A stretch of 64,000 nucleotides of DNA from an uncultured Allomuricauda sp. (GTDB taxonomy: Bacteria > Bacteroidota > Bacteroidia > Flavobacteriales > Flavobacteriaceae). Numbering within the stretch: the first letter of the stretch is position 1; each line of letters opens with the position of its first letter. The stretch spans positions 2,937,618 through 3,001,617 of the forward strand of contig OY781874.1 of the NCBI GenBank assembly GCA_963677115.1, in the 5' to 3' direction. A program made the position numbers and the translations under genes. The notes beneath the pieces are model-generated. The model searched no databases and was not told the DNA's origin. It worked only from the letters and a program-made list of their open reading frames with translations. Shown here piece after piece: positions 3 to 16,537 of this stretch.

Positions 3-389
3 ACTGCGACAGTGGAGGAAGAAAGAACACTTAGGGAGTATTTTGCACAAGACGAGGTCGCTCCTCACTTGGAACAGTACAGGCCTATGTTCAGCTACTT
101 TTCCATGGCGAAGGAAGAAAAGTATACCAAGCAGGTACCATTAAAACCTAGAGTAAACTATTACAAGTGGCTATCCGTTGCGGCGGCAGTAGTTTTGACC
201 TTCGGTATTTATTTTGGTAATCAGTACCAAGAAACAAAACGGTTGGAGGAACAAAAAGCAGAATATGCTTACCAAGAAACCAAAAAGGCTTTTGAACTCT
301 TAGCGGAAAATTTTAACAAGGGTACCGAAAAAGTGGCCTATCTAAAAGAGTTCGAAGAGGCAAAAGACAAAATTTACAATAACAATTAA
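3..389 (+). CDS. 5'-truncated single-pass membrane protein, possibly anti-sigma-factor-like, upstream of the DUF4252 pair
   Basis: Frame is open from the window edge; one hydrophobic helix (WLSVAAAVVLTFGIYF) followed by a helical C-terminus; this arrangement ahead of DUF4252 genes is typical of Flavobacteriaceae. Confidence 0.55.
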   Translation, partial: TATVEEERTLREYFAQDEVAPHLEQYRPMFSYFSMAKEEKYTKQVPLKPRVNYYKWLSVAAAVVLTFGIYFGNQYQETKRLEEQKAEYAYQETKKAFELLAENFNKGTEKVAYLKEFEEAKDKIYNNN

Positions 390-402
390 AAAACGTAACA
401 AG

Positions 403-942
403 ATGAAAAAGTATATTTTAATCACAGTAATGGCACTATTGCCTTTGGCAGGTTTTTCACAATCCCTTTTTGATAAGTTTGAGGATTTGGATGAAGTTAC
501 ATCCGTGGTGGTAAACAAAAGTATGTTCAATCTGCTTGCAAAAATCGATGTGGAGGTAGACGATCCCGAAGCACAGGACTTTATGGATATAGCAAGTAGC
601 TTAAAAAGTCTAAAAGTGTTTACTACCGAGGACAAGAAAATCGGCAATGATATGAAGTCTTCGGTGGACAGCTACCTGAGGTCTTCAAAAATGGAGGAAT
701 TGATGAGGGTAAAGGACAAAGATGCCAATGTCAAATTCTATATCAAAGAAGGTAGGGATGCAGACCACGTTAGCGAGCTGCTTATGTTCGTGACGGGTTT
801 GGGAGATGTTGAGGCGAACGGCAGAAAGTTTGAAACGGTTATTTTGTCCCTTACTGGTGATATTGACCTGAACAAAATCGGTTCGTTGACCAAAAAGATG
901 AACTTGCCCGAAGAGCTCAACGAAGCAGGCAAGAAGAATTAA
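403..942 (+). CDS. DUF4252-like exported protein
   Basis: 179 aa, signal peptide ending AGFSQ, ELMRVKD and LSLTGDIDL motifs recalled for this family. Confidence 0.7.
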   Translation: MKKYILITVMALLPLAGFSQSLFDKFEDLDEVTSVVVNKSMFNLLAKIDVEVDDPEAQDFMDIASSLKSLKVFTTEDKKIGNDMKSSVDSYLRSSKMEELMRVKDKDANVKFYIKEGRDADHVSELLMFVTGLGDVEANGRKFETVILSLTGDIDLNKIGSLTKKMNLPEELNEAGKKN

Positions 943-1056
943 TCATACTACAGTTGACAATAGTAGGTGGGGTATTGTAACAAAATACAAGTAAAACCAA
1001 CTTATTATTGTCAACTGATTTTTTAGATTTCAGAATCAATCAAAAACATAGAGAAA

Positions 1057-1596
1057 ATGAAACAGATCATTAAAACCATGTTGGTGGCCGCTACGGTACT
1101 GTTGGCATCATGTGCTTCGCAGCCCAGTCTACAGGAATATTATGTGGACAATTCCGAGAATCCCAACTTTTTATCCATAGACGTGCCGGCAAGCATTCTA
1201 AAATTGAACGAGGAGGAATTGAACCCGACGCAAAAGGAAGCTATCGAATCGCTTCGTAAGTTCAATCTGTTGGCATTTAAGAAGAATGCCGACAACGAGG
1301 CGGACTACGAGATGGAAAAGAAAAAAGTACGTGAAATCCTTAAAGGAGATGATTTTGTGGAATTGATGAAAATCAATTCAAAATATGGCAAGGGAGTCAT
1401 TAAATACCTAGGTGACGAGGATGCCATTGATGAAGTCATCATTTATGGGGATAGTGAAGATAAAGGCTTTGCCTTGGTTCGTGTACTGGGAAAAAATATG
1501 AACCCGGCACACATTATCCAATTAATGCAGGCCATTCAAAAATCTGATTACAAAGGAGAAGGATTAGGAGAGATAGGAGATTTTCTTAAGGGTTAA
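1057..1596 (+). CDS. DUF4252-like lipoprotein
   Basis: Lipobox LASC, ELMK and FALVRVLG motifs; paralog of the preceding gene. Confidence 0.7.
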   Translation: MKQIIKTMLVAATVLLASCASQPSLQEYYVDNSENPNFLSIDVPASILKLNEEELNPTQKEAIESLRKFNLLAFKKNADNEADYEMEKKKVREILKGDDFVELMKINSKYGKGVIKYLGDEDAIDEVIIYGDSEDKGFALVRVLGKNMNPAHIIQLMQAIQKSDYKGEGLGEIGDFLKG

Positions 1597-1722: not shown

Positions 1723-2538
1723 ATGGAAAAAGCACAGGAATGGTTCGATTATGCAATTGAATTGGCAAAAGAATTTGGTCCCAAACTAGTCACCGCACTC
1801 ATCATTTATTTGGTGGGTATGTGGGTTGTGAACAAAATTATTAAGGGTACCCGAAAGGTGATGTCCAAAAGTAAGTACGACCTATCTCTCCAGAAATTTT
1901 TACTGAATCTGTTTTCTTGGGCATTAAAGGTATTCTTGATAATCATTGTAATTTCGAGACTGGGGGTAGATGTCACCACCTTTGCCGCAGTGATAGCTGC
2001 TGCCGGGCTTGCTGTGGGCTTAGCGCTGCAAGGCTCGCTCTCCAATTTTGCCGGAGGTGTACTCATCATGATTTTTAAACCGTATAAAATCGATGACCTT
2101 ATTGAAGCACAAGGTGTTTTGGGCAAAGTAAAAGGCATCGAAATCTTTACCACAAAACTGGTGACCCCTCAAAACAGACTGGCCATTGTTCCCAACGGTG
2201 CCATGGCGAACGGGAACATTATCAACTACACTGCGGAAGGAAAAGTAAGGGTAGATGCCGTGGTTGGCGTGGGGTACGATGAGGATATCAAAAAAACCAA
2301 GGAAGTTTTATTAAAGGTGCTGACCTCCAACAAAAAAGTGCTCAAAGATCCGGCGCCTTCCGTAAATGTTTTGGAACTGGCGGACAGCTCCGTGAACTTT
2401 GCCGTTCGTCCCTATTGCAAACCGGAAGATTATTGGGATGTTTATTTTGCTACCTATGAAAACAGTAAACTTGCGTTGGATGAGGCGGGAATTGAAATTC
2501 CATACCCGCACCAAGTGGAAATCCATAAACAGGGATGA
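1723..2538 (+). CDS. mscS: Small-conductance mechanosensitive channel (MscS family)
   Basis: AAGLAVGLALQGSLSNFAGGVLI and PYKIDD motifs; C-terminal GIEIPYP. Confidence 0.92.
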   Translation: MEKAQEWFDYAIELAKEFGPKLVTALIIYLVGMWVVNKIIKGTRKVMSKSKYDLSLQKFLLNLFSWALKVFLIIIVISRLGVDVTTFAAVIAAAGLAVGLALQGSLSNFAGGVLIMIFKPYKIDDLIEAQGVLGKVKGIEIFTTKLVTPQNRLAIVPNGAMANGNIINYTAEGKVRVDAVVGVGYDEDIKKTKEVLLKVLTSNKKVLKDPAPSVNVLELADSSVNFAVRPYCKPEDYWDVYFATYENSKLALDEAGIEIPYPHQVEIHKQG

Positions 2539-2570
2539 ATTTTGCTCCCTTAAACTCATCAAAAGTTAAC

Positions 2571-2592
2571 TATTCCTGCCTTAGTAGGAATA
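2571..2592. terminator. Hairpin between mscS and the displaced purB 3' end (possible ancestral shared terminator)
   Basis: tattcct...aggaata inverted repeat between two convergent stops. Confidence 0.45.
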
Positions 2593-2599
2593 ACAAATA

Positions 2600-2706
2600 C
2601 TACACCCCAGTGTAATTCGCTGGGGTAATTTGTTTCAACTCAGCTTTAATATCATCTGAAACGTCCAAGGTCTCGATAAAATCGGCAATGGATTTTTGGT
2701 TGATTT
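2600..2706 (-). pseudogene. Orphan duplicate of the last 34 codons of purB (INQKSIADF...ITPANYTGV-stop)
   Basis: 2604-2706 is identical to 10358-10460; it ends GTG TAG where the intact gene ends GTT TAA; an in-frame TAA lies immediately upstream, so it is not translated. Confidence 0.9.
2604..2706. repeat. 103-bp perfect direct repeat, left copy (att-like)
   Basis: Base-by-base identity with 10358-10460. Confidence 0.95.
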
Positions 2707-3043
2707 ATCCCAATAAAGAATGGCATCCAAGCACTCTACAACCTTTACTCCCTCTTCCGCTTACAGCTAGGTTTTGTTTTTCCGAAAAGCATCTATATCA
2801 GATGTTTACTTTACTTCTAACAATAAAAATACTACATTTAAGCATCAAAAGCTTACAATAAACCTTTTTAGATTATTGATAAGCTATTTGTTTTTCAAGC
2901 CTGCCTAGGCAGATAACCCCCTTAGAAAACTTTCAACTTCTATTGTAAACCTTTTCGGTTGAGGACCCTAAGTTTTTAACCATGAAGGTTTGGTACGTAT
3001 TGTGGGTACGCTAAATCTTATTAACACTTAACCTATATTAATC

Positions 3044-3565
3044 ATGAAAAAACTACTGATTACCCTATGCCTGCTGGCGGTAAACGCCTGCAGCAACAAT
3101 GACGACAAACCCGTGAACCCAGTGGACTCCCTGCCGCCCATTACCCAAACGGGGGAGGATACGTTTGCATGCCTAATAAACGGCAAGCCCTTTTTTTCTA
3201 GTTATAAAAGGCGAGCTTCATATACATATACCGAAGATGGATATACCTTTTCAATAAGTGGCTCAAGATATGATGATGAAGGAATTAAAACAGTTAGCTT
3301 GGTGGGTTTGGATATTTCAAATTTAATTGAAGAAAAAAATTATTTATTAGAGTCTGAAATGAGTGGCAATTTTTATGGCAGGTACGCTATATACAATTCA
3401 GGTATAACAGCTTACTCTTCATCACATGATACCCCTGGTGTTTTAAACATTACTAAAATTGATTTGGATGAGGGCTTTGTTTCTGGAACATTTGAATTTA
3501 TAGCTAATGACGGAGAAGGAAATATTTTAAGTTTCACCGACGGCCGTTTCGACCTAGAATTTTGA
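3044..3565 (+). CDS. Variable lipoprotein A1 (DUF6252-like)
   Basis: Lipobox AVNAC; LPPITQTGEDTFACLING N-terminal block; SGTFEF...DGRFDLEF C-terminus; family name from recall. Confidence 0.7.
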   Translation: MKKLLITLCLLAVNACSNNDDKPVNPVDSLPPITQTGEDTFACLINGKPFFSSYKRRASYTYTEDGYTFSISGSRYDDEGIKTVSLVGLDISNLIEEKNYLLESEMSGNFYGRYAIYNSGITAYSSSHDTPGVLNITKIDLDEGFVSGTFEFIANDGEGNILSFTDGRFDLEF

Positions 3566-3597
3566 ACAGCTTAAAATCAACCACTTAAAAATTAAAG

Positions 3598-3631
3598 GCA
3601 GCATACCCCAAATCCATAAATTTTAAATCTA
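3598..3631 (+). repeat. 34-nt pre-gene element, copy 1
   Basis: GCAGCATACCCCAAATCCATAAATTTTAAATCTA, starting 40 nt before the ATG at 3638. Confidence 0.9.
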
Positions 3632-3637
3632 CAAATC

Positions 3638-4159
3638 ATGAAAAAACTACTGATTACCCTATGCCTGCTGGCGGTAAACGCCTGTAGCAACACCGATGAC
3701 AAGCCCGTGAACCCAGTGGACACCCTGCCGCCCATTACCCAGACAGGGGAGGATACGTTTGCATGCTTAATAAACGGCAAACCCTTTTTTTCTAGTAAAG
3801 ACAGAAGTGCATTTTATACCTATGCTGATGGTGCTTACACCTTGGGAATCAGTGGGACTAGAAATGATGATATTGGCTTAAGGTCAATTCTTTTAGCAGG
3901 AATCGATATTAAAGAAGGGATTAAAGAAGGAATCTGTCCACTTAATTCTGAAAATAGTGGAAGCTTTGACGCCACCTATCTTATAGATGGAGGAGTCACG
4001 CTGAATTCATCAACAACTGATGAGGCTCCAGGTATTTTAACTATCACTCGATTTGACCTAGAGGAATTTATTGTTTCGGGCACCTTTGAGTTTACGGTGG
4101 TAGATGATGAAGGTAATAAATACGAAATGACCGACGGCCGTTTCGACTTAGAATTTTGA
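3638..4159 (+). CDS. Variable lipoprotein A2 (DUF6252-like)
   Basis: Same conserved ends as A1, divergent middle. Confidence 0.7.
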   Translation: MKKLLITLCLLAVNACSNTDDKPVNPVDTLPPITQTGEDTFACLINGKPFFSSKDRSAFYTYADGAYTLGISGTRNDDIGLRSILLAGIDIKEGIKEGICPLNSENSGSFDATYLIDGGVTLNSSTTDEAPGILTITRFDLEEFIVSGTFEFTVVDDEGNKYEMTDGRFDLEF

Positions 4160-4191
4160 ACAGCTTAAAATCAACCACTTCAAAATTAAAG

Positions 4192-4225
4192 GCAGCATAC
4201 CCCAGATCCATAAACTTTAAATCTA
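4192..4225 (+). repeat. 34-nt pre-gene element, copy 2
   Basis: GCAGCATACCCCAGATCCATAAACTTTAAATCTA, 40 nt before the ATG at 4232. Confidence 0.9.
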
Positions 4226-4231
4226 TATAAT

Positions 4232-4966
4232 ATGAAAAGAACAATTTTTATTATGCTTTCCTTTTTCATCTTCCAGAGTTGTGAAAAGGACGATACCGCA
4301 TTGGATTGCCAAGCCGACTGCACTACTGTGCAGGGCCAAATAGTTACGGCCAAAGGAGAGCCCTTGCCCAATATATCTGTGGCTTTTGATCATTTTGTCA
4401 GCCAAGGAATTGGAAGTTCCCGTCGAAAAATCAAAGAAACAAGGACTGACGAGAATGGTTATTATACCATGAAATTTTTTATTAAAGATGATGAACTCGG
4501 TGTCGAAGCTGATGGACTTTTTGAATTGAATATCGATTACAGCAACCTTGATTCCAAGGTTTACATGAGTACAAATCAATATTATAAACACACGATGTAT
4601 TATTTGGATAAACGGGACACTACAATCGTTTTGGACTTCTATAACCCTAAAAAAGCCTATATCACGGTAAACCTCAATGGTTTTAATCCAAGTACTGAAG
4701 ATGATTATTTTAAGTTAGAATCATTTTTTCCTTCTGGAATAAAAAATGAGAAGAATAGTATATGGGGTTTTGATTATGTATTGGGTTATGGTACAAGTTA
4801 TAAAGCAACCTCGGCCAATTCTAAAATTGACAGTGTTTTAGTTGCGGAAAATGATAATAATTGGATCAGTATCCGGAGATGGAAGGGTGGTGTAAACTTG
4901 ATAGATGAGGACACTATTTTTTTTGTTCCGGAAAACAATTCAATTAAGCTGGATTTTATCTATTGA
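4232..4966 (+). CDS. Variable lipoprotein B1, unknown function
   Basis: Lipobox FQSC followed by EKDD; TVQGQIVT...GEPL resembles a carboxypeptidase-regulatory/prealbumin-like beta domain. Confidence 0.7.
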   Translation: MKRTIFIMLSFFIFQSCEKDDTALDCQADCTTVQGQIVTAKGEPLPNISVAFDHFVSQGIGSSRRKIKETRTDENGYYTMKFFIKDDELGVEADGLFELNIDYSNLDSKVYMSTNQYYKHTMYYLDKRDTTIVLDFYNPKKAYITVNLNGFNPSTEDDYFKLESFFPSGIKNEKNSIWGFDYVLGYGTSYKATSANSKIDSVLVAENDNNWISIRRWKGGVNLIDEDTIFFVPENNSIKLDFIY

Positions 4967-5006
4967 TGAAATACAAGACCATATACTATTTCTAACCATT
5001 TGTTAA

Positions 5007-5040
5007 GCAGCATCCCCCAGATCCATAAACTTTAAATCTA
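5007..5040 (+). repeat. 34-nt pre-gene element, copy 3
   Basis: GCAGCATCCCCCAGATCCATAAACTTTAAATCTA, 40 nt before the ATG at 5047. Confidence 0.9.
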
Positions 5041-5046
5041 CAAATT

Positions 5047-5553
5047 ATGAAAAAACTACTGATTACCCTATGCCTGCTGGCGGTAAACGCCTGTGGCAAC
5101 AATGACGACAAACCCGTGAACCCAGTGGACACCCTGCCGCCCATTACCCAAACGGGGGAGGATACGTTTGCATGCTTAATCAATAGAAAACCTTTTTTTT
5201 CCAGTTACAAGAGACGAGCTACTTACTCAGGAAATTCTATTAGTATAAGTGGTTCGAGACAGGATGATATGGGACTAAGATCTGTGTCTATTCAGGGTTT
5301 TAATCTAGAAATCATTGAGGAAGGCTTGTATGTGTTAGAATTAGAGAAAAGCGGTAGTTTCTTCGGAATTTACTTAGTTGATGGAGGACTCACACTTGAT
5401 ATTGGAACCTCTGATAATTTACCTGGTACGCTAACCATCACTCGATTTGATCTGGATGAATTTATCGTTTCGGGCACCTTTGAGTTTACGGTGGTAGATG
5501 ATGAAGGTAATAAATACGAAATCACAGACGGCCGTTTCGACTTAGAATTTTGA
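5047..5553 (+). CDS. Variable lipoprotein A3 (DUF6252-like)
   Basis: Conserved ends; shorter variable segment than A1, A2 and A4. Confidence 0.7.
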   Translation: MKKLLITLCLLAVNACGNNDDKPVNPVDTLPPITQTGEDTFACLINRKPFFSSYKRRATYSGNSISISGSRQDDMGLRSVSIQGFNLEIIEEGLYVLELEKSGSFFGIYLVDGGLTLDIGTSDNLPGTLTITRFDLDEFIVSGTFEFTVVDDEGNKYEITDGRFDLEF

Positions 5554-5585
5554 ACAGCTTAAAATCAACCACTTCAAAATTAAAG

Positions 5586-5619
5586 GCAGCATACCCCAGA
5601 TCCATAAACTTTAAATCTA
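5586..5619 (+). repeat. 34-nt pre-gene element, copy 4
   Basis: GCAGCATACCCCAGATCCATAAACTTTAAATCTA, 40 nt before the ATG at 5626. Confidence 0.9.
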
Positions 5620-5625
5620 CATAGT

Positions 5626-6144
5626 ATGAAAAAACTACTGATTACCCTATGCCTGCTGGCGGTAAACGCCTGTAGCAACAATGACGACAAACCCTTGAAC
5701 CCAGTGGACACCCTGCCGCCCATTACCCAAACCGGAGAGGATACATTTGCATGCTTAATAAACGGCAAGCCCTTTTTTTCCAGCAAAGACAGAAGAGCAT
5801 CTTATACGTTTACGGATGGCGCTTATACCTTGGGAGTAAGCGGTTCAAGAAATGACGAGATTGGATTGAGAACTATTTCAATACAGGGGATAGATGTTGC
5901 CCCATTAAACGAAGGTATTTATAATCTTGAATCTGAAAAAAGCGGAAATTTTAGTGGACTCTATGGAATAGATGGAGGTCTATTACTTGATGTAGGAACT
6001 TCTGATAATTTACCGGGTACGCTGACCATCACTCGATTTGATCTGGATGAATTTATCGTTTCGGGCACCTTTGAGTTTACGGTAGTAGATGATGAAGGTA
6101 ATAAATACGAAATCACCGAAGGCCGTTTCGACCTAGAATTTTGA
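5626..6144 (+). CDS. Variable lipoprotein A4 (DUF6252-like)
   Basis: Conserved ends; 5' variable part resembles A2, 3' part resembles A3. Confidence 0.7.
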   Translation: MKKLLITLCLLAVNACSNNDDKPLNPVDTLPPITQTGEDTFACLINGKPFFSSKDRRASYTFTDGAYTLGVSGSRNDEIGLRTISIQGIDVAPLNEGIYNLESEKSGNFSGLYGIDGGLLLDVGTSDNLPGTLTITRFDLDEFIVSGTFEFTVVDDEGNKYEITEGRFDLEF

Positions 6145-6176
6145 AAAACTCAAAGTCAACTAATTAAAAATTAAAG

Positions 6177-6210
6177 GCAGCATACCCCAGATCCATAAAC
6201 TTTAAATCTA
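6177..6210 (+). repeat. 34-nt pre-gene element, copy 5
   Basis: GCAGCATACCCCAGATCCATAAACTTTAAATCTA, 39 nt before the ATG at 6216. Confidence 0.9.
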
Positions 6211-6215
6211 CACTT

Positions 6216-6950
6216 ATGAAAAGAACAATTTTTATTATGCTTTCCTTTTTCATCTTCCAAAGTTGTGAAAAGGACGATACCGCTTTGGAATGCCAGACCG
6301 ACTGCACTACAGTGCAGGGCCAGATAGTTACGGCCAAAGGAGAACCCTTGCCCAACATACCTGTGGCTTTTGATTACCAATACATTCTTGGTATTGGTTC
6401 CAAAGTCAGAAGGATAAAAAAAATAACGACCGATAAAAATGGCAATTATAAAATGCAATTTTTTGTCAAGGACGAGGAACTTACCGGAGACGCTGGGGGA
6501 TATTTTGAATTGGTAATCGATTATAGCAACCTTGATTCCGAGGTTTACATAAGTACGGATAGTTATTACTCACTTGCAGTTGGACAGATTAGCAATCGTG
6601 ACACTACGATCACACTGGACTTTTATAACCCTAAAAAAGCCTATATCACGGTAAACCTCAATAGTTTTAATCCGAGTACTGAAGATGATTCATTTATTAT
6701 AAGATCATTTTACCCAACAGGGCGTAAGATTGGCCAAAATAGTTTATTGGATACTGAATATCAAATTGCACAAGGCACAGAGGTTAAAGCTAATTCAGTT
6801 AATACCATTTCAGACAGTGTTCTTGTAGCATTGGAAGACATCAACCGAATTGGTGTGAATAGGAGGAAAAACGGTGTGGAATTGGAGACTGAATACTATA
6901 CAATTTATGTGGACAAGAATAACGAAATAGAATTGAACTATAGTTATTAG
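6216..6950 (+). CDS. Variable lipoprotein B2, paralog of B1
   Basis: Nearly identical first 48 aa and internal RDTTI.LDFYNPKKAYITVNLN.FNPSTEDD block; same length (244 aa). Confidence 0.7.
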   Translation: MKRTIFIMLSFFIFQSCEKDDTALECQTDCTTVQGQIVTAKGEPLPNIPVAFDYQYILGIGSKVRRIKKITTDKNGNYKMQFFVKDEELTGDAGGYFELVIDYSNLDSEVYISTDSYYSLAVGQISNRDTTITLDFYNPKKAYITVNLNSFNPSTEDDSFIIRSFYPTGRKIGQNSLLDTEYQIAQGTEVKANSVNTISDSVLVALEDINRIGVNRRKNGVELETEYYTIYVDKNNEIELNYSY

Positions 6951-6981
6951 GGTGTTATATATAAAAAACATTTTTAATGGC

Positions 6982-7015
6982 GCAGCATCCCTCAAATCCA
7001 TAAACTTTAAATCTA
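6982..7015 (+). repeat. 34-nt pre-gene element, copy 6
   Basis: GCAGCATCCCTCAAATCCATAAACTTTAAATCTA, 40 nt before the ATG at 7022. Confidence 0.9.
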
Positions 7016-7021
7016 TAAATT

Positions 7022-10000
7022 ATGAAAAAACTACTGATTTGCTTGACATTATTGACCTGCTTTGGCCTCTCCGCCCAATTGCATATCGACCTTGAGGTCG
7101 CCGACCGCACCAACCAAGCGTTCAGCTTGTTGGACAAAAGCAAGGTTCCCCACAACATGCTACTGGATTATGGGTACGATTTTGTGGACGTGACCAACTA
7201 CGACGGCGTGCTCCGGGACAACAATTATCTAGTACCCTCCGTGTACCGCGACCTGTACAACAGTGTGGTCTCCATGCGTACCACCCTAACCGTGCCGGAA
7301 CTGGTGGACCCTATGCTCATGGAACAGGGGTGGAAGAGCACTTCCAAGACGGAGCTGAACAAACTGGGCAAAGGGGCCATGGCCTCGGCAGTGGTCCTCA
7401 ACGGCATGTACTACCAGTATGCCCGCTTTCGCCCCGATGCGTTGCAGAACGGCCTTATTGCGGTGGAGAACAACAAGTACCGCGATGTGTATGTGGGCAC
7501 GGAGTGGCAGGACCCCTACGAGGAAATGGAAGTGTTTGCTATGGCGCTACCCGTTACGCAGATCAGCAACTCCAAGGTGTCCGTGGTGCTGGGCAAAACG
7601 GATTGGCGCACCAACCAACCGGGCCTGGTGGACGAATTTGCCGTGGATTTTGGCGATGGCGGCGGGTTTGAGCCCATGTTGTTGGGCGTATCCGTAGATC
7701 ATTATTTTGAACAGGACGGGGAGTACGCGTGGACGTTTCGGCTAAAGCTCACGGACGGTACCTTTAAGTACTGCCGCACCCCGGTAAAGGTCACCGGTAA
7801 GGCCAAACAACAGACCCTGACGGCCCGTAACCCTGACTGCGATAAGAAACCCTGGGTAGAGACCATTACAGCCGCTAAGGGGTATATGGGGATAAAGGGA
7901 GTGGCCAATTTACAGATAGCCCCTGCCAAAGAATGTACTAAAATCCACAAACCCTTGATTGTTGTAGAAGGGTTTGATACGGGTTTGATGGGAAATGATC
8001 CAGAATGGGGTGATACACACCTTAAATCTTTTTTGGATGAGGTGAGGTTTAAGTCTCAAAGTCAAGAATTGCAAAACCTTATTACCGAAGACACCGAAGA
8101 AAGTTTTGACATCATCTACGTAAACTGGGAAGATGGCACCGATTGGCTGCAGCGCAATGCCTATGCCCTGGAGGCGGTGATAGAATGGGTGAACAACAAT
8201 AAGGAGGAAGATGCAGCGCCCAACGTTATCTTGGGCCAGAGCATGGGCGGGGTCATTGCCCGGTATGCCCTTCGCGATATGGAGAACAACAATGTGGACC
8301 ACGATACCAGCCTCTACATAAGCCACGATGCCCCGCACCAAGGTGCCCACGTGCCCCCCGGCTTTTTATTTGCCGCACGCCATGTGCTCAACGAGCTTAT
8401 TACCACGCCCATTGGCGATGTTACGGTAGCCGTTGCCAGTAATGAGTTTCCGGTGGACGATGCCCGCCAATTGATAGATAGGCCCGCTGTAAAGCAAATG
8501 CTCATCAATTATGTGGACTCCAATTACGAACTGAACAACACGGTGCACAAGGCATGGCAGACCGAGCTCAAGAACATGGGCTACCCGCAGCAAACACGCA
8601 ATATAGCCATCAGCAATGGTAGCCATTGCGCAGAAGGCTACGGGTTGGAACCCGGCAAAAGCCTTTTCTGGCTGCACGGTAGGGCCTCTACCAGCCTTAT
8701 TGGGGACTTCCTGCTCTTTCTTTATCCAGCCTTAGGAGGAATCCCCGGTGCGGCTTTTGGGGATATTCCTGCCGCTATACTGGGTTTTGTACCGGGAAAG
8801 ACCACCCTTAAAACGGATTTTCAGGCATGGGCCATACCAGGGAACGTAGAAGACTTGATTTATAAGGGATGGATCCAGTACGAAAAGAAAAGTTTATGGA
8901 TTTTGCCCATAACCCGCACCCTTACCAATAAAGCCATTAAATGGCAGGGAGAGAATGTGTATTGGGCAAATTTTCCGGGAGGGGCTATGCCGTTTATCAA
9001 TACTGTAGATGATTTTAATATAAATGACGAGGAAACTATAGTGGACTTTTTGTTGAATTATGATATCACCTTGGAAACACCCCCGGACCTTAATTTTATA
9101 CCCACGACCAGTGCCCTGGATGTAGGCGGCAATAATGTGGCACTTACCCAGGAAGACCATTACAGAGTCTATACCATGGATGCGGAACTACCGGATGGGC
9201 TAAAGATTCAATTTGATAATTTTGCCACCACTTACAATATTTCTGGGAAGAATACGGATCATATTTCCTTTAATAGGGCCAATGGCGATTGGTTGGCCGA
9301 TGAGCTTAAGAATGCAGGCACCGTTTTCGATTGTACATTTTTATGTGGTTCCAGTTTTGTGATCGAGGGAAGCAGCAAGCTTTGTGAACAAGAAATTTAT
9401 TTTGTGGATGTAAAGGGAGATATGCAGGTAGAATGGAGTTCCGATAACATGGAGGCAGCATTACCCAGCGACCCCAACAGCCCGGCAACATCGTTTACCA
9501 CCTCACCAAATTCCTATAACGAAACATTGACCATTTATGCCATTTTGACCTCCGAAAGCTGTGCAGGAGACCCCATAGTTCTGGAAAAAACTGTCCATGT
9601 GGGCAAGCCTGGGCTACCATCCAACTTATGGGGACCCGAAATTGTTTTAACAGGAGCTTTGGTCAAGTATTATGGCGGACCTGCAGAGGGGGCTGATTCT
9701 TATGAATGGTGGCTGCCCCATCCTTTTGAAGTAGTAGACCAGTTTGATTATTTTGGGGATAATTGGCAAATATTAAGTACCAATACCTATTATGATGTGG
9801 CCAATGTATTTACTGGATATGCAAAACATGAGGGGTTGGTACAGCTTATGGGCGTAAACGAGTGTGGGCGGGGACCTGCTATAACAATGCATGTAAAACA
9901 TGTCGGAGAGGGAGAAATTGGTGAAGGAGGTATTCCTTTGGAACAGAATCCAGGATACCAGTCGAACCCTAATTCAAATGAAACCGAGGATGGTGTAGTG

Positions 10001-10255
10001 ATCTATCCCAATACCGCAACGGACGAGGTAAACATCACCTTGGAATCCTCCATGGGTCCAGAAGGGATTGCTCCATCAAAAATCTTGGGTATAGCTGTAT
10101 ACCAACAGCTACAACAAGCACCTAAAAAGCAACTGATTTTTTCCTCACCTAAGACTTCAGCATTGATAGATGTCAGGGATTTAAATGATGGGTACTATTT
10201 TGTAGTGATAGAAACCGATAAAGGCCCGGTGACCAAAATTCTTTTGGTAAAATAA
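7022..10255 (+). CDS. T9SS type-A cargo protein with an alpha/beta-hydrolase (lipase/esterase-like) domain
   Basis: Signal peptide ending LSAQ; GQSMG nucleophile elbow at 8234-8248 (aa 405-409); IVVEGFD and DAPHQGA motifs; C-terminal IYPNT...DVRDLNDGYYFVVIETDKGPVTKILLVK sorting domain. Confidence 0.78.
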   Translation: MKKLLICLTLLTCFGLSAQLHIDLEVADRTNQAFSLLDKSKVPHNMLLDYGYDFVDVTNYDGVLRDNNYLVPSVYRDLYNSVVSMRTTLTVPELVDPMLMEQGWKSTSKTELNKLGKGAMASAVVLNGMYYQYARFRPDALQNGLIAVENNKYRDVYVGTEWQDPYEEMEVFAMALPVTQISNSKVSVVLGKTDWRTNQPGLVDEFAVDFGDGGGFEPMLLGVSVDHYFEQDGEYAWTFRLKLTDGTFKYCRTPVKVTGKAKQQTLTARNPDCDKKPWVETITAAKGYMGIKGVANLQIAPAKECTKIHKPLIVVEGFDTGLMGNDPEWGDTHLKSFLDEVRFKSQSQELQNLITEDTEESFDIIYVNWEDGTDWLQRNAYALEAVIEWVNNNKEEDAAPNVILGQSMGGVIARYALRDMENNNVDHDTSLYISHDAPHQGAHVPPGFLFAARHVLNELITTPIGDVTVAVASNEFPVDDARQLIDRPAVKQMLINYVDSNYELNNTVHKAWQTELKNMGYPQQTRNIAISNGSHCAEGYGLEPGKSLFWLHGRASTSLIGDFLLFLYPALGGIPGAAFGDIPAAILGFVPGKTTLKTDFQAWAIPGNVEDLIYKGWIQYEKKSLWILPITRTLTNKAIKWQGENVYWANFPGGAMPFINTVDDFNINDEETIVDFLLNYDITLETPPDLNFIPTTSALDVGGNNVALTQEDHYRVYTMDAELPDGLKIQFDNFATTYNISGKNTDHISFNRANGDWLADELKNAGTVFDCTFLCGSSFVIEGSSKLCEQEIYFVDVKGDMQVEWSSDNMEAALPSDPNSPATSFTTSPNSYNETLTIYAILTSESCAGDPIVLEKTVHVGKPGLPSNLWGPEIVLTGALVKYYGGPAEGADSYEWWLPHPFEVVDQFDYFGDNWQILSTNTYYDVANVFTGYAKHEGLVQLMGVNECGRGPAITMHVKHVGEGEIGEGGIPLEQNPGYQSNPNSNETEDGVVIYPNTATDEVNITLESSMGPEGIAPSKILGIAVYQQLQQAPKKQLIFSSPKTSALIDVRDLNDGYYFVVIETDKGPVTKILLVK

Positions 10256-10353
10256 AAGTAACTGCCTATCCACAGCAACCAAGATGGACTAGATTTTTGA
10301 TTTTGATTCATCTTGAGCAGAAATCTAAAGTCTCGAACTGGCAGAATTTTAGA

Positions 10354-11697
10354 TTAAACCCCAGTGTAATTCGCTGGGGTAATTTGTTTCAACTCAGCTT
10401 TAATATCATCTGAAACGTCCAAGGTCTCGATAAAATCGGCAATGGATTTTTGGTTGATTTTTTCGTTGGTACGCGTTAAACCTTTTAAGGCTTCGTATGG
10501 GTTGGGATAGCCCTCTCTTCGTAAAATGGTCTGAATGGCCTCGGCAACCACGGCCCAATTATCCTCTAAATCTTGCTCGAACTTGGATTGGTTCAGTACC
10601 AATTTGCCCAATCCTTTTAAAGTAGACTGGAAACCAACTATGGTATGTGCAAAAGGCACCCCCACATTTCGTAAAACAGTACTGTCCGTAAGATCACGTT
10701 GTAATCTGGAAATCGGGAGTTTGGCGGATAAATGTTCAAAAATGGCATTGGCCAAGCCCAAATTTCCTTCCGAATTTTCAAAATCGATAGGATTCACCTT
10801 GTGCGGCATGGCCGAAGAGCCAACTTCTCCTTTTTTGATTTTCTGTTTAAAGTAATCCATGGAAATGTAGGTCCAAAAGTCGCGATCCAAATCAATCAAA
10901 ATGGTGTTGATGCGTTTAAGGCAATCGAACAAAGCCGCCATATGGTCGTAGTGCTCGATTTGGGTAGTGGGGAAGGAGTGGTGCAAGCCCAGTTTCTCCT
11001 GTACAAACTGCTTTCCAAAGGCTCTCCAATCATTATTGGGATACGCCACCTTGTGTGCGTTGTAATTCCCTGTGGCGCCACCGAACTTAGCAGCACTGGG
11101 TATGTCGTTCAATAAATTGAACTGCTCTTTAAAACGTTCCACAAACACGTCGATTTCCTTGCCTAAACGGGTAGGGGAAGCGGGCTGACCGTGGGTCCTG
11201 GCCAACATAGGGATGTTTTTCCATGTCTTGGCCAGTTCCTTCAATTTTTCAAAAACCTCCAAATAGGAAGGAACGTACACATCGTTCATCGCCTCTTTGA
11301 TGGACAAAGGAATGGCCGTGTTGTTTATGTCTTGGGAAGTCAGTCCAAAGTGAATGAACTCCTTGTATTTCTGAAGGTCTAAAGCATCAAACTTTTGTTT
11401 GATGAAGTATTCCACGGCTTTTACATCGTGATTGGTAGTTTTTTCAATATCCTTGATGGCTTGGGCGTCTTCGGAAGAAAATTCTTGATAGATTTTCTGC
11501 AATTCGGGAAACAGCGCCGTATTGAAATCGGCCAATTGCGGCAAAGGGACTTCGCAAAGCGCTATAAAATATTCAATCTCTACTTGAACACGGTATTTGA
11601 TCAGGGCTTCTTCCGAAAAGTAGTCTTTTAAGGCTTTGGTTTTGTTTCTATATCTGCCGTCAATCGGCGAAATGGCGTTTAGTTGTGTCAGGGACAT
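10354..11697 (-). CDS. purB: Adenylosuccinate lyase
   Basis: LNAISPIDGRY N-terminus, TNHDVKAVEY, signature GSSAMPHKVNPIDFENSEGN; start moved to the ATG at 11697. Confidence 0.96.
   Translation of the reverse strand: MSLTQLNAISPIDGRYRNKTKALKDYFSEEALIKYRVQVEIEYFIALCEVPLPQLADFNTALFPELQKIYQEFSSEDAQAIKDIEKTTNHDVKAVEYFIKQKFDALDLQKYKEFIHFGLTSQDINNTAIPLSIKEAMNDVYVPSYLEVFEKLKELAKTWKNIPMLARTHGQPASPTRLGKEIDVFVERFKEQFNLLNDIPSAAKFGGATGNYNAHKVAYPNNDWRAFGKQFVQEKLGLHHSFPTTQIEHYDHMAALFDCLKRINTILIDLDRDFWTYISMDYFKQKIKKGEVGSSAMPHKVNPIDFENSEGNLGLANAIFEHLSAKLPISRLQRDLTDSTVLRNVGVPFAHTIVGFQSTLKGLGKLVLNQSKFEQDLEDNWAVVAEAIQTILRREGYPNPYEALKGLTRTNEKINQKSIADFIETLDVSDDIKAELKQITPANYTGV
10358..10460. repeat. 103-bp perfect direct repeat, right copy (inside the purB 3' end)
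   Basis: Identical to 2604-2706. Confidence 0.95.
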
Positions 11698-12349: not shown

Positions 12350-12805
12350 GTGATGAAAATAGTGAAAAAAATAGCAATTGTCCTATTGATCGTATTGATC
12401 GGTATGCAATTTTACCGACCAGTAAAAAATAAGGCCGAAGGCGATTATGTAGCAGCCTTTGAAACGGATACCCAACCTTCGCCAGAAGTAAAAATAATTT
12501 TGGAAGCAGCCTGCTACGATTGTCATAGCGCCAACACGGAATATCCTTGGTACAATAATATTGCTCCTGTTTCTTACTGGTTGGCCGATCATGTTGAAGA
12601 TGGAAAGCGTCATTTAAATTTTTCCGATTGGGAAAATTACGATGCTAAAAAGAAGGATCACAAGCTGGAAGAGATAATCGAGGAGGTGAAGGAAGGTGAA
12701 ATGCCCTTGAACGAATATACTTGGACCCATGCTGATGCCAAATTGTCCGACGAGCAAATGCGTCTACTACTGTCCTGGGCAGAGGCCACCAGAGCTAATT
12801 ATTGA
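12350..12805 (+). CDS. Haem-binding (cytochrome c type) protein
   Basis: CxxCH motif (ACYDCHS), YPWY, G..HLNFS.W and EMP motifs; N-terminal membrane anchor. Confidence 0.8.
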   Translation: MMKIVKKIAIVLLIVLIGMQFYRPVKNKAEGDYVAAFETDTQPSPEVKIILEAACYDCHSANTEYPWYNNIAPVSYWLADHVEDGKRHLNFSDWENYDAKKKDHKLEEIIEEVKEGEMPLNEYTWTHADAKLSDEQMRLLLSWAEATRANY

Positions 12806-13490
12806 TAAGATTCTCCACCAAAACCGGTAGTCCCTTGGCAGCGGTTTTTGGGATTACGGTCAGGTTATCAAAATCTGTAGATCGAATGTTGGGCTTGGGG
12901 TCAATAAAGTATATTGGAGTCTGTTTTGGGGCATAATGAATCAAACTTGCCGCAGGATAGACTTGCATAGAGGTGCCCACTATAATCAAAATTTCGGCTT
13001 GTTGGGCAATCTGTACTGCGGTCTCCAACATGGGTACCATTTCGCCAAACCAAACAATATGTGGACGTAGCTGATGTCCGTTTTTGTCTGTATCGCCCAA
13101 AATCAAGTCCTTTTTCCAATCCAATATATGGTTTTCATCCATCGTGCTCCGCACTTTGAACAATTCTCCGTGCAAATGCACCACGTGGGAACTGCCGGCC
13201 TGCTCGTGCAGATTATCTACATTTTGAGTTATAATACTGACATCAAAAGCCTGTTCCAGTTCTGCCAATGCTAAATGACCTTTGTTTGGGACAACCTCCA
13301 ATAATTGTCTTCTCCTTTGGTTGTAAAATTCAAGTACAAGTTCTGGGTCTTTTGCAAACCCTTGTGGCGAGGCCACTTGCATCACATCATGGCCTTCCCA
13401 AAGGCCATTTTCGTCACGAAAGGTCTTAAGACCACTTTCGGCACTCATGCCAGCACCTGTTAACACAACTATTTTTTGTTTTTCCATCAT
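12795..13490 (-). CDS. cobB: NAD-dependent protein deacylase (sirtuin)
   Basis: GAGMSAESG, TQNVDNLHE, HG, LRPHIVWFGE and GTS..VYPAA motifs. Confidence 0.92.
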   Translation of the reverse strand: MMEKQKIVVLTGAGMSAESGLKTFRDENGLWEGHDVMQVASPQGFAKDPELVLEFYNQRRRQLLEVVPNKGHLALAELEQAFDVSIITQNVDNLHEQAGSSHVVHLHGELFKVRSTMDENHILDWKKDLILGDTDKNGHQLRPHIVWFGEMVPMLETAVQIAQQAEILIIVGTSMQVYPAASLIHYAPKQTPIYFIDPKPNIRSTDFDNLTVIPKTAAKGLPVLVENLINN

Positions 13491-14626
13491 TTATTTTTCC
13501 CCAACAGATTTAAAATTATGCTTTTGAACATAGAAATTCCAGTCGTAATTAGCTCATCCGGAAAATCATAGTCTGCATTGTGCAGGGCTGGAGTGGATTC
13601 ACCGGCCCCAATGCCGAACATTGAAGTTTTGTAGGATTTGGAAAACCAACCAAAATCCTCACCGAATTTAAACGGAACAGGACGTTCTACAGTTGGAAAA
13701 TTGTTGGATGAGGCAGCCTGTCTTACCAAGTGGGTACATTCGTTGTGAACGGAACTAGCCGGAAAATATTCCATCCAATCCAGTTTAGACCCCAAGTGCC
13801 ATTGTTTGCAAACCTTGTCCACAATCCCGGTTAATTTGGATTGCAGTTTCTTCATTTGGTCTGTGTTCCAAGTACGAAGCGTGTAATGCAATTCAGCATT
13901 TGCTGGTGAAATACCGTATGATGTTTGGCCCATTTTGAGGTGTATCGGTGTTACAATGGCAAATTTTGGGTCCATTGGTTCCGGCGCGTTCAATTTTGAT
14001 ATGCTTTGAACAATTTCAGCCAAGGCCAGAGCCGGATTTATGCCATTCTCAGGCTCTGATGCATGGGATTCTTTGCCTTTTAGCTGTATGGAAACACTTA
14101 TCACCTCTGCAGAAAATCCCTGTTCTGTGATGAGTATGCTGTGCAGTGGCACTTTGGGAATATTGTGCAAGGCGAAGACATAATCGGTCTGCAATCCTTT
14201 AAATTTTTTGTCCTTAACCATTCTCAGTGCTCCTTCACCGGTTTCCTCGGCCGGTTGAAAAAGTAAGATTATAGTTCCTGATTTTAAGTGGCTTACCGAC
14301 AGCCATTTTGCTATACCGGCCATAATGGTCATATGGCCATCATGCCCGCATTTGTGGGAGACTCCATTTGTATTGGACTTATGCGGAAAGGTATTGGTTT
14401 CCTGAATCGGCAATGCATCCAATTCGCATCTTAGGGTTATTCTGGGTCCGTTATCAGAGAATTTAAAAACTACCGCCATACCGGCACCTCCAATCCCTTC
14501 AATTATTTTGCTGGGGCTGTAGGGAGCAATAAATTCTTTTATGATATCCGCCGTTCCCTGTTCCCTGTTGGATAGGTCTGGGTCTGCATGCAATTTATGC
14601 CTTAATGCCACGAGTTGATTATCCAT
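13487..14626 (-). CDS. M20-family amidohydrolase
   Basis: RHKLHADPDLS, LRCELDALP, HKCGHDGH, FQPAEE, EDF and LHN motifs; start moved to the ATG at 14626. Confidence 0.88.
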   Translation of the reverse strand: MDNQLVALRHKLHADPDLSNREQGTADIIKEFIAPYSPSKIIEGIGGAGMAVVFKFSDNGPRITLRCELDALPIQETNTFPHKSNTNGVSHKCGHDGHMTIMAGIAKWLSVSHLKSGTIILLFQPAEETGEGALRMVKDKKFKGLQTDYVFALHNIPKVPLHSILITEQGFSAEVISVSIQLKGKESHASEPENGINPALALAEIVQSISKLNAPEPMDPKFAIVTPIHLKMGQTSYGISPANAELHYTLRTWNTDQMKKLQSKLTGIVDKVCKQWHLGSKLDWMEYFPASSVHNECTHLVRQAASSNNFPTVERPVPFKFGEDFGWFSKSYKTSMFGIGAGESTPALHNADYDFPDELITTGISMFKSIILNLLGKNK

Positions 14627-16376
14627 TGGCAGCTGGTTTTCTTGATTGAAGCCATCCATTATGATTGCTGGCTGCTTGTTCTGCCCATTGTGTGATGCGC
14701 GGTCCAAAACATTCCAATATGGCATCAACACCGATGACGGTTCCTTTGGCCAGACGTCCAAGTAGTGCGATGGGCAAGGTGTTTTCAGATGTATCCAATA
14801 TATATCCGTGGTCATCCGTGGCAACACCGAGTTCATCATGAACGGCTTGAATCATCCCATCCGACAGCATATTTCTTACCAACGAAGATGTTACTTCCTT
14901 TATTTTGGGCTGGTCCATTACCGAGTCCACCATGATGTTGACCGTTATTGACTTGTTAGGATTTGCCAACCTCCAACCGTCATCTACCAGTTCAATTTCA
15001 GGATTGTTCACATAGTCTAAATTAAGCACACCGGCTTTTTTTAGGGCAATCAATTGTTGAATGGCCTCTACCGGAGGTCCGTAAGAGTATCTTTTGGTAG
15101 ATTCATCCAACATTATGACCTTGGCAAAAACATTATCTGGGCATGCACTATAAGAAAGCTGTTTATATATCGAAGGTTGACAATGTCGCCAAACCTGTCC
15201 AATACAAAAATCCAAGCTAATCGCATGTTGTCCCGTGGCCATGCCTACGAAACTTTCCATCATGGCCCCCACAGGCTCATCCTGAGGCACAATTGCGGGG
15301 TCATCCAAAGTTGGATCTTTTAGCCATTTTTTGATGATATCTTCTATCCTGGGTTGTTCGAGTTGGTTGGGGTTGATGTTCTTGGGCAGTTCCAAGAAAA
15401 TATCCGCAGCGATCGGAGCGAATGCATCAAGCAAAAAACCAATATCCTCCGCAGTTTTTTGGGTATCTCCGTTTCCGATCAGGATTTCAAAATTATCCAA
15501 TTGTGTGGCTGAAGGGGCAAACCAATCGTCTATTTCTTTATTTAATGGCTTTGGAACCGGGGGCAGGCCATCCAACGAAAAAGGAACTAATAGATTTTCA
15601 ATCTTTTGGATTGGAGCGTAGGTAAATTCCCGGGTTTTCTTGTTCTCGATTTGAAAATCACCAAATTCTTTCGCTATTCGGCGCGCCACGTCGATCATGG
15701 TAAGGCCAAACCCTCGTATTCCGATGATACTTTTGGAGTCCAGATGTTGACTGGACAAAATATTGGAAAGGGGATAGGCGTTTTGGAAGAGACTAATTCC
15801 GTTGTGGTTGTCCACATGATTCTGCCATTTGGCCATTTGGCCAGAAATTTTGGTAGGTTGGTGTCCTATAGTCAGTAAAATTTCGTCAAAATCACCGTAG
15901 GTATTGTTGCTTGTGCATATATTGATTTTTTTATTTTCCATTAGTTGAAGTTCATGCACTTTGTCTATACGCATAGTAGCGTATCCTTTTTCCACCAAGG
16001 GGTCGATCAAAGAACAGAACCTTTGGTTCAGATATTTGCCGATTTTACGCCGAGGGGGATAGGCATCCACCTCTCTGGATATATTATGATCTATCCAATC
16101 ATGGTAAGATGGGAATGATGGAATGTTGAATTCTTTGAAACGGATTTCTTTTCTTTCATCGAGTTCCAAAATCCGTTCGGTGATGTTTATCCAATTGGAG
16201 CTGGACTGGGCGGTATCGTATACATGACCTCCACCAAAATTCCCGGAAGCCTCGAACAAGGTAAAATGGAGGTTTTTAAAGCTGTTTTTCTTTATCAATT
16301 GAGCGACCAAGCACTCCAAGGCATATCCACCCCGTGGACCAATACCTATAATACCAAGGTTGCGTTTATCGGCCAT
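14619..16376 (-). CDS. FAD/NAD(P)-binding oxidoreductase (NAD_binding_9-like)
   Basis: IIGIGPRGGYALE dinucleotide-binding motif, LLTIGH, second Rossmann motif RGFGLTMIDV. Confidence 0.75.
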   Translation of the reverse strand: MADKRNLGIIGIGPRGGYALECLVAQLIKKNSFKNLHFTLFEASGNFGGGHVYDTAQSSSNWINITERILELDERKEIRFKEFNIPSFPSYHDWIDHNISREVDAYPPRRKIGKYLNQRFCSLIDPLVEKGYATMRIDKVHELQLMENKKINICTSNNTYGDFDEILLTIGHQPTKISGQMAKWQNHVDNHNGISLFQNAYPLSNILSSQHLDSKSIIGIRGFGLTMIDVARRIAKEFGDFQIENKKTREFTYAPIQKIENLLVPFSLDGLPPVPKPLNKEIDDWFAPSATQLDNFEILIGNGDTQKTAEDIGFLLDAFAPIAADIFLELPKNINPNQLEQPRIEDIIKKWLKDPTLDDPAIVPQDEPVGAMMESFVGMATGQHAISLDFCIGQVWRHCQPSIYKQLSYSACPDNVFAKVIMLDESTKRYSYGPPVEAIQQLIALKKAGVLNLDYVNNPEIELVDDGWRLANPNKSITVNIMVDSVMDQPKIKEVTSSLVRNMLSDGMIQAVHDELGVATDDHGYILDTSENTLPIALLGRLAKGTVIGVDAILECFGPRITQWAEQAASNHNGWLQSRKPAANG

Positions 16377-16537
16377 TTAGTTTACACCAACTTTTGGATG
16401 TATTTTATGTTAGTTGTCATTCATTTTCCGGACGTTCGATCATGGATTTCACTTCTTTGATCTCTTTTCTTTGTGCCTTAATAATTTTTTGCGCCAACTT
16501 TCGCCTTTGCCCTGCCAATAAAACCGATTTGAATCAA

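Follow-up and report, generated by a model that had tools for sequence, protein, structure and literature searches.

Four adjacent genes for small lipoproteins of the uncharacterised NF052634/DUF6252 family, designated A1 to A4, lie in a 64,000-nt stretch of contig OY781874.1 from an uncultured Allomuricauda sp.; this whole stretch is referred to as the window, and homologous loci on other contigs are labelled L001, L002, and so on. The four genes are mosaics, in which near-identical 5' ends and strongly divergent middles have incongruent histories, and the middles, or cores, have been replaced as blocks and are under purifying selection. The reading that we favour, with a probability of roughly 0.78, is that the junctions between the genes are in concerted evolution around old, exchangeable core types; this figure refers to the evolutionary mechanism and not to function. 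According to this proposal, the junction module would run from the last codons of the upstream gene through a 72-nt spacer to codon ~53 of the next gene. The ~53 codons at the start of a gene are predicted to encode a signal peptide with the lipobox Cys16, then a disordered tether and the first beta-hairpin. Recombination between these repeats, by gene conversion or unequal crossing-over, would keep the module near-identical within a genome, with the 3' third of the gene homogenised less and more patchily. The core (codons ~54–130; six predicted beta-strands with their loops) would exist as at least five discrete, anciently diverged types that probably arose within the Flagellimonas group, persist across species, and remain under purifying selection. 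With the alike junctions acting as homology arms, whole cores could be lost, acquired, or substituted for one another and could move from one strain or species to another, and near-identical strains would carry different core sets because cores are exchanged in this way. We infer ordinary RecA-type recombination as the mechanism.

The locus comprises six small genes and one large gene on the + strand in the order A1-A2-B1-A3-A4-B2-hydrolase, and the open reading frames (ORFs) match the following coordinates:

3044..3565, + strand: A1, NF052634/DUF6252 lipoprotein gene, core type alpha; constant 5' module at 3044–3202, block rich in GC at third codon positions (GC3) at 3074–3163, core at 3203–3433
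3566..3637, + strand: A1-A2 spacer, 72 nt, holding a 34-nt motif at 3598–3631
3638..4159, + strand: A2, core type delta, core at ~3797–4042
4232..4966, + strand: B1, second lipoprotein family, 244 aa, with a weak CarboxypepD_reg-like N-terminal domain
5047..5553, + strand: A3, core type gamma, core at ~5206–5421, 5 codons shorter
5626..6144, + strand: A4, core type beta, core at ~5785–6015
6216..6950, + strand: B2, paralogue of B1
7022..10255, + strand: hydrolase gene, 1077 aa, conserved downstream neighbour of A arrays
2601..2706, no strand assigned: orphan copy of the purB 3' end, 99% identical to 10355–10460

The DNA of the A copies is 87–100% identical over codons 1–50 taken as a whole, and equally so over the last codons plus spacer. 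When the four copies are compared in windows of 10 codons, identity is 0.77–1.00 over codons 1–50 and falls to 0.33–0.70 over codons 51–130; A3 carries one 4-codon and one 1-codon deletion. A preliminary description of this DNA had proposed near-identical constant ends around a strongly divergent middle with indels, and the sliding-window comparison bears this out, with divergence concentrated in codons 51–130 rather than evenly spread. The 3' end is itself a mosaic: A3 and A4 are 0.83–1.00 identical from codon ~121, A2 becomes near-identical to both from codon ~131, and the 3' part of A1 is divergent, with only the last ~9 codons (TDGRFDLEF) and the 72-nt spacer in common with the others. The proportion of differing synonymous sites (pS) among the A copies is 0.16–0.25 in codons 1–52 versus 0.63–0.79 in the core (two pairs were tested, with a Fisher p of ~1e-5 to 9e-5), and the non-coding spacer is near-identical too. 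Because synonymous sites and the spacer are also alike at the ends, the contrast between ends and middle exceeds what protein constraint would produce. The pattern is repeated between B1 and B2 (94% identity over codons 1–53, 53–72% in the rest), and in all 41 of the multi-copy loci tabulated, which represent many genera, co-resident A paralogues resemble one another more closely over the 5' part than over the core. Much of the contrast at the protein level is nevertheless family-wide: in 120 homologues, which represent many genera, the signature motifs lie in the hairpin at the N-terminus and in the final three strands, and entropy is 0.6–1.5 bits in the conserved regions versus 2.2–3.5 bits in the middle. 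A run of T residues is found at the boundary between constant and variable sequence (position 3190 in A1), with seven in A1, A2, and A4 and eight in A3, all in frame. In one contig from a sediment metagenome, of low depth (3.8), this run is longer by one T, which would shift the frame; slippage, a pseudogene, or an error of sequencing may lie behind it.

The core sequences of five lineages sort into five types, termed alpha, beta, gamma, delta, and epsilon, of which the window holds the first four (A1 alpha, A2 delta, A3 gamma, A4 beta; epsilon does not occur in it). Each type is found in several species; beta-type genes like A4, for example, are also present in L002, L003, and L082. The earlier term "hypervariable" was therefore an overstatement, as the cores are discrete, conserved types and not fast-changing sequences. 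Signal peptides and tethers are genome-specific rather than type-specific: all A copies in the window read MKKLLITLCLLAVNACSNNDDKP, all copies in L002 read MKKVLIALY(I/V)L(A/T)LSGCS, and other genomes have their own versions. In a maximum-likelihood tree of codons 1–52, the genes group by lineage with three label changes, the minimum possible, which was matched in 0 of 200 shuffles. The tree of codons 53–130 groups them by type and needs nine lineage-label changes, no better than shuffled labels, and that of codons 131–172 is intermediate. Approximately unbiased (AU) tests reject lineage clades for the core data (p 1.5e-7 and 7e-6) and type clades for the 5' data (p 2e-32 and 7e-40), and the mosaic structure suggested earlier is confirmed by these incongruent trees. 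The same switch is seen in a positional profile of 8-codon windows with no preset boundaries. Over codons 1–48, co-resident paralogues of different types are 0.88–0.95 alike, compared with 0.62–0.85 for genes of the same type from different species; over codons 57–128, same-type genes of different species are the more alike in most windows, and the 3' part is mixed. Inside the converted tract, co-resident paralogues are closer to each other than orthologues are; outside it, the orthologues are the closer. This is the pattern of concerted evolution.

The replacement of whole cores is most directly seen between close strains. The window and L001 differ little in flanking genes (synonymous divergence, dS, of 0.05 in purB and 0.06 in mscS), yet their array orders are alpha-delta-B-gamma-beta-B and alpha-gamma-B-epsilon-B-alpha, respectively, with delta facing gamma and gamma facing epsilon at the same array positions. 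In a blastn comparison of the two, collinear homology of 96.6–98.6% ends at codon 53/54 and returns at codon ~127–136 of the second and fourth genes (in A2, at 4043). The earlier idea that variable middles are swapped between homologous anchors is thus upheld by different cores at the same positions in near-identical strains, with breakpoints at both sides of the core. The gamma core of A3 is identical to the core of the second gene of L001 and differs from that of L083 by two synonymous changes and one non-synonymous change.

Cores have also diverged less than their surroundings in other comparisons. Between L002 and L003, 12 of ~55 synonymous sites are changed in the beta core, whereas purB has reached saturation, with a pS of 0.85 (Fisher p 7e-20). 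When the window is compared with L083, the delta and gamma cores have 3 differences at ~110 synonymous sites, compared with 193 at 709 in the hydrolase gene (p 1e-10). The alpha cores of L005 and L084 are identical, yet the 5' ends that enclose them are changed at 12 of ~36 synonymous sites, against a background in the hydrolase gene of 50 of 716 sites (7%; p 9e-6). Among the window, L001, and L083, dS is 0.06–0.22 in the 5' ends versus 0–0.04 in the cores. The cores were further detected in three metagenomes in different sets, each with 0–3 mismatches to the window (~99% identity or more); one metagenome has alpha, gamma, and beta without delta, and another has only alpha and beta. Taken from these sequence comparisons, both processes appear to act: the ends would be homogenised with resident neighbours, and the cores would travel between strains and species.

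Ends and cores also differ in base composition, although not quite as initially described. The claim of GC-rich ends around AT-rich cores stands for the cores, and both hand counts given for it (32/60 GC at 3121–3180 and 14/60 at 3301–3360) are exact, but the GC-rich part of the A genes is only a 90-nt block at codons 11–40 (56–62% GC, GC3 0.67–0.79). Neither codons 1–10 and 41–53 nor the spacer and the constant 3' part exceed the window mean of 42% GC. The GC3 expected for the block is 0.48, and the observed values fall in the top 1–3% of background windows; core GC3 is 0.21–0.28 versus an expected 0.46, lower than in any of 503 background windows of 78 codons taken from the 64-kb window. The contrast lies in codon choice and is present in 25 of 25 A genes at nine Flagellimonas-group loci, despite saturated synonymous divergence between species; in the B genes it is milder (GC3 0.47–0.49 in codons 1–53 and 0.31–0.37 in the rest).

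Amino-acid composition is only a partial cause of this contrast, with expected GC of 0.49–0.51 against 0.56–0.61 observed in the block and 0.42–0.46 against 0.32–0.39 in the cores. A preference for certain codons at conserved residues was rejected, as GC3 does not track site conservation within any region. GC-biased gene conversion is suggested because the regional order of GC (5' part above 3' part above core) parallels the degree of homogenisation. Counter to it are the weak gene-level correlations, with rho of 0.10 (not significant) in the 5' part and 0.22–0.28 in the 3' part, and the fact that other converted stretches are not GC-rich. RNA folding offers no explanation for the block: no structure is predicted in the spacers (z-scores of +0.2 to +1.0, no better than shuffles), a consensus fold of 12 species reaches −6.7 kcal/mol with almost no covariation, and a 205-nt fold has a z-score of −0.18. 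On the minus strand, antisense ORFs of 52–68 codons overlie the GC-rich 5' block of every A gene (3028–3186, 3592–3780, 4992–5183, and 5580–5786), and several antisense frames are open over this block in other species. We judge them to be a by-product of composition and not genes, as several frames are open in the GC-rich versions.

The preliminary description had gone further and cast the cores as foreign segments rendered hypervariable by positive diversifying selection, through recognition of phages, predators, or toxins. We regard this as unlikely, although a core GC3 below every background window, the movement of cores between lineages, and an array content that differs between close strains are all in its favour. 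In a core tree of 159 family members, however, all five types fall into one clade, with a support of 99 in the Shimodaira-Hasegawa-like approximate likelihood ratio test (SH-aLRT), whose members are 18 genes of the Flagellimonas group and a single one from an unclassified metagenome-assembled genome; a foreign origin of the cores is not supported by this placement. In addition, low GC3 is common to every species of the group despite saturated dS, and cores of the same type are nearly identical across strains instead of fast-changing. Nor does the ratio of non-synonymous to synonymous divergence (dN/dS, omega) indicate diversifying selection, since region-wise core omega is 0.05–0.34, below 1 throughout. 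The cleanest same-type pair gives 0.12, and seven independent close pairs pooled have 38 synonymous and 30 non-synonymous core differences (omega ~0.25), compared with an omega of 0.02–0.05 in housekeeping genes. Selection on the cores is more relaxed than on housekeeping genes yet clearly purifying. As the types are long-lived and are present or absent at the level of strains, the set of types is probably maintained by balancing or frequency-dependent selection.

It is also conceivable, though highly improbable, that no recombination is involved, the ends being alike through strong purifying selection and the middle merely less constrained. Such an explanation would account for the conservation of the same regions in the 120 homologues. 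It would leave unexplained the near-identity of synonymous sites and spacer within a genome (pS 0.16–0.25 versus 0.63–0.79 in the core), signal peptides that follow the genome and not the type, the strongly supported tree incongruence, and 5' ends that exceed the cores in dS among the window, L001, and L083; moreover, no RNA element is predicted for the ~260-nt junction. The least probable of the alternatives considered is a dedicated machine, namely a diversity-generating retroelement, a shufflon or other invertase system, integron-type capture, or phase variation by slipped-strand mispairing. The cassette-like organisation, in which a 34-nt motif recurs before six genes, and the run of seven or eight T residues at the constant/variable boundary, with its extra T in one low-depth metagenome contig, could be seen as signs of such a system. 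Against this, searches for features of retroelements, shufflons, and integrons returned no such repeats or structures in 2500–10500, inverted repeats of note included. There was no recombinase match in the four large downstream ORFs tested (12,795–17,545), the tested ORFs extending up to 17.5 kb, and the spacers are unstructured, unlike attC sites. The array and its immediate upstream side are made up of the A and B genes, the hydrolase gene, and two genes for DUF4252 lipoproteins. The cores differ by 30–67% with indels and are conserved across species, which is not the adenine-focused pattern of a retroelement, and all copies are full-length genes and not silent cassettes.

Several points nevertheless weigh against concerted evolution around exchangeable cores, or narrow what it explains. 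The 5' region also encodes the most conserved motif of the family, LPPITQTGxNTFxCLINGKPF, and the identity of the 5' ends is not wholly a product of recombination because selection on this motif contributes. The groups compared in the AU tests were named only after the sequences had been seen. An incongruent tree fits both homogenised ends and imported cores, and the direction is not always tellable. Public assemblies must cross the junction repeats of ~260 nt, at which Logan contigs break; cassette order could therefore be mis-assembled, whereas cassette content could not. Between types, dS is saturated and omega is accordingly unreliable, the omega figures given here being region-wise. Finally, the copy count of A genes is that of this locus.

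The A proteins, which are 168–173 aa in length in the window, belong to NCBIfam NF052634 (Riean_0653 family protein): A1 and A4 score 145.5 bits, A2 143.7 bits, and A3 136.8 bits against a cut-off of 57 bits, and each matches model positions 1–176 of 176. Scores against Pfam PF19765 (DUF6252) are closer to its gathering threshold of 27.2 bits (A1 30.2, A3 27.2, A4 25.2, and A2 22.3 bits), and many homologues carry a precomputed DUF6252 match. The family is common in Flavobacteriaceae and is also found in genomes labelled Cytophagales, Cyclobacteriaceae, Chitinophagaceae, and Mucilaginibacter. The N-terminus MKKLLITLCLLAVNAC consists of a signal peptide and a lipobox, the Cys16 of which is invariant in 42 aligned homologues. 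In A-family sequences, the Cys is followed by a stretch rich in Asp and Glu (C-SNNDDK, C-SKEEAPKD, C-SNDDKPEN, C-NNDDNG), and in the B proteins by C-EKDD. The acidic stretch of the A proteins resembles the surface-export signal of Bacteroidota, and the A proteins may be tethered at the cell surface.

An AlphaFold2 model of A4, built from a 42-sequence alignment, is all-beta with 11 strands (pLDDT 90, pTM 0.80), preceded by a disordered tether up to about residue 30. The parts conserved across the family are the loop and hairpin at residues 30–51 and the last three strands at 131–171, and the six strands between them are variable. If the strands run as a meander, the variable residues would form one contiguous half of the modelled fold. 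Solved structures include no significant neighbour of the A4 model (best E 0.05, TM < 0.3), and a sequence search of the PDB returned nothing for the A proteins. No paper on DUF6252 was found in a literature search, and models of defence systems and immunity proteins have no match at the locus.

The product of the large downstream gene has a signal peptide and shows weak similarity both to a PKD-like domain and to alpha/beta-hydrolases (PGAP1-like, LCAT, DUF676), the latter around a GQSMGG nucleophile motif; its C-terminal sorting domain of the type IX secretion system (T9SS) scores just under the Pfam threshold. In a synteny survey of 80 loci from 79 contigs, with 0–7 A copies per locus, 70 loci were informative. 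A T9SS hydrolase homologue of ~1,000–1,100 residues starts ≤400 nt downstream of an A gene in 51 of these 70. In four more, the window included, the hydrolase gene is near but beyond the 400-nt limit, and 15 arrays have no such gene nearby. Identity along the hydrolase is fairly even (0.33–0.92 per 40-residue window, with its peak at the catalytic region), with the exception of a hypervariable patch of ~25 residues (residues ~321–347, at ~7982–8062) just after EGFD(S/T)GL. The 150-nt window around this patch is 69% identical between the window and L001, while neighbouring windows are 93–100% identical. Alleles that are otherwise unrelated have the patch in common, and it recombines too, since L084 has an L003-like patch in an otherwise L005-like hydrolase gene. 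A classical polymorphic toxin was considered and does not fit the hydrolase, as identity is fairly even and only the ~25-residue patch varies between close strains.

In several genera, short ORFs alternate with the A genes (L021, L044, L051, L053, L057, L058, L072, and L077). Most match hydrolase residues 1 to ~100–260, and those of L051 match ~280–410; these mostly N-terminal pieces look like debris of unequal crossing-over or broken copies. In one lineage of the Flagellimonas group, represented by L081 (10049–11308) and L082 (4708–5967), the gene at the hydrolase position has only 419 residues, the large protein being truncated or replaced.

With regard to function, the multiplicity of copies, the discrete types, the arrays without a hydrolase gene, and the variable patch of the hydrolase together suggest that the A proteins are specific binding partners of the hydrolase. 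Our leading guess, which is tentative, is that the variable half of the A fold may serve as the specificity surface of an immunity-like or docking partner. A rival with not quite an even chance of being correct is that the A proteins are helpers of the hydrolase (anchor, activator, or foldase) or surface ligand-binders acting with it, in which case the types would reflect substrates. In Riemerella anatipestifer, Riean_0653 is required for haemolysis, as found with four independent transposon mutants and complementation, and the recombinant protein alone is not haemolytic (PMC7881567). This result, the sole experimental datum on the family, fits a helper better than an immunity role and so tells against our leading guess. 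The predicted all-beta structure, fold matches that include surface-lipoprotein beta-barrels (all non-significant), and a hydrolase that is not polymorphic like classical toxins agree with a helper or ligand-binder as well. Such a role has difficulty, however, with 1–7 divergent copies per single hydrolase gene, with the presence or absence of types at the strain level, with the 15 arrays that have no nearby hydrolase gene, and with a hydrolase patch that is hypervariable and recombines. In sum, a helper or ligand-binding role is about as likely as an immunity-like one. A bolder and rather doubtful extension of the immunity-like reading is that the array is a library of interchangeable specificity cassettes, supplying surface lipoproteins to dock or neutralise the variants of a lipase-type weapon that the T9SS exports, with the hydrolase patch (residues ~321–347) as the matching surface. 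A literature search found no account of partner lipoproteins for a T9SS lipase.

In the Flagellimonas/Muricauda/Allomuricauda group, the locus adjoins purB, with mscS on the other side in most loci that have an upstream flank. The array is a long-standing chromosomal locus in this group, because the purB/mscS neighbourhood is kept across it. A 106-nt direct repeat (2601–2706 and 10355–10460, 99% identical), formed by the purB 3' end and its orphan copy, brackets the whole array together with the hydrolase gene; the duplication is also present in L001 and absent from L002. In L003, purB is flanked by another small insertion, unlike the first, that brings a purB end of its own (L003 14581–14685). 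The purB end looks like a recurrent insertion point on account of the duplication in L001 and the window and the different insertion in L003. A terminator-like hairpin at 2604–2626, the only one in 2540–7100, sits in the purB-end repeat and thus after mscS on the + strand, and the same sequence occurs ~100 nt past the hydrolase stop. The 34-nt motif GCAGCATMCCYCARATCCATAAAYTTTAAATCTA has six copies in the window (3598, 4192, 5007, 5586, 6177, and 6982), ~40 nt ahead of the ATG of A2, B1, A3, A4, B2, and the hydrolase gene but not of A1. The number of matches expected by chance is zero, and L002 and L003 have none even with six mismatches allowed. Among Flagellimonas-group loci that reach far enough upstream (window 3–1596, L001–L003, and L081), genes for an extracytoplasmic function (ECF) sigma factor, a 144-aa protein, and two to four DUF4252 lipoproteins precede the locus; two of the DUF4252 lipoprotein genes lie just upstream of the array in the window.

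Evolution of this kind is known from other bacterial surface-protein families and is new for the NF052634 family and this locus. The outer-membrane paralogues babA/babB, sabA/sabB, and hopM/N of Helicobacter pylori are reportedly subject to concerted evolution. Like these, the A genes combine a divergent middle with 5' and 3' ends that are near-identical; gene conversion would make the ends uniform and exchange the middles between loci, and strains differ in the middle found at a given locus. Unlike the dispersed H. pylori paralogues, the A copies are adjacent in one array with shared spacers, they encode small lipoproteins and not porin-like adhesins, their core types are shared across species, and their array is coupled to a T9SS hydrolase gene. 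The opa genes of Neisseria likewise have a conserved framework around variable segments that are reshuffled by recombination within and between strains, and the A genes resemble them in having such a framework round discrete segments. However, opa genes are phase-variable through a pentamer repeat and under immune selection, whereas neither a phase-variation repeat nor a host immune context is evident for the A array, and omega of the A cores is well below 1.

The pairing with a hydrolase is reminiscent of the Tle lipases of type VI secretion systems (T6SS) and their Tli immunity lipoproteins, and Bacteroidales are said to carry arrays of orphan immunity genes. As in Tle/Tli loci, small lipoprotein genes in one to several divergent tandem copies adjoin a gene for a lipase-type hydrolase with a GxSxG motif, and, as with the orphan arrays, some A arrays lack the hydrolase gene and content varies by strain. 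In contrast to Tle/Tli, the hydrolase has a T9SS C-terminal domain and not a T6SS association, the A lipoprotein genes lie upstream, there is no match to a Tli or Tle family, and the one experimental datum on the family points to a positive role. Integron arrays are similar in that short genes are separated by repeated sequence and their content is strain-variable; unlike integrons, the locus has no integrase or structured attC-like sites that we could find, and the exchanged unit is the interior of a gene bounded by coding homology and not a whole promoterless cassette.

These findings place two evolutionary regimes within a single 520-bp gene, the ends evolving in concert within a genome and the middles behaving as long-lived, cross-species alleles that are traded blockwise. 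They also provide the first evolutionary description of the uncharacterised NF052634/DUF6252 family and tie it to a large T9SS hydrolase. The contrast in synonymous GC could be used for a fine-scale test of GC-biased gene conversion. If the array were indeed a library of specificity cassettes, it would be the first effector-immunity system delivered by type IX secretion, with immunity diversity arising from block exchange inside genes and not from the acquisition of whole genes. If the core types are recognition specificities, the locus would be a tractable model in which to study how marine Bacteroidota maintain and exchange diversity in recognition.

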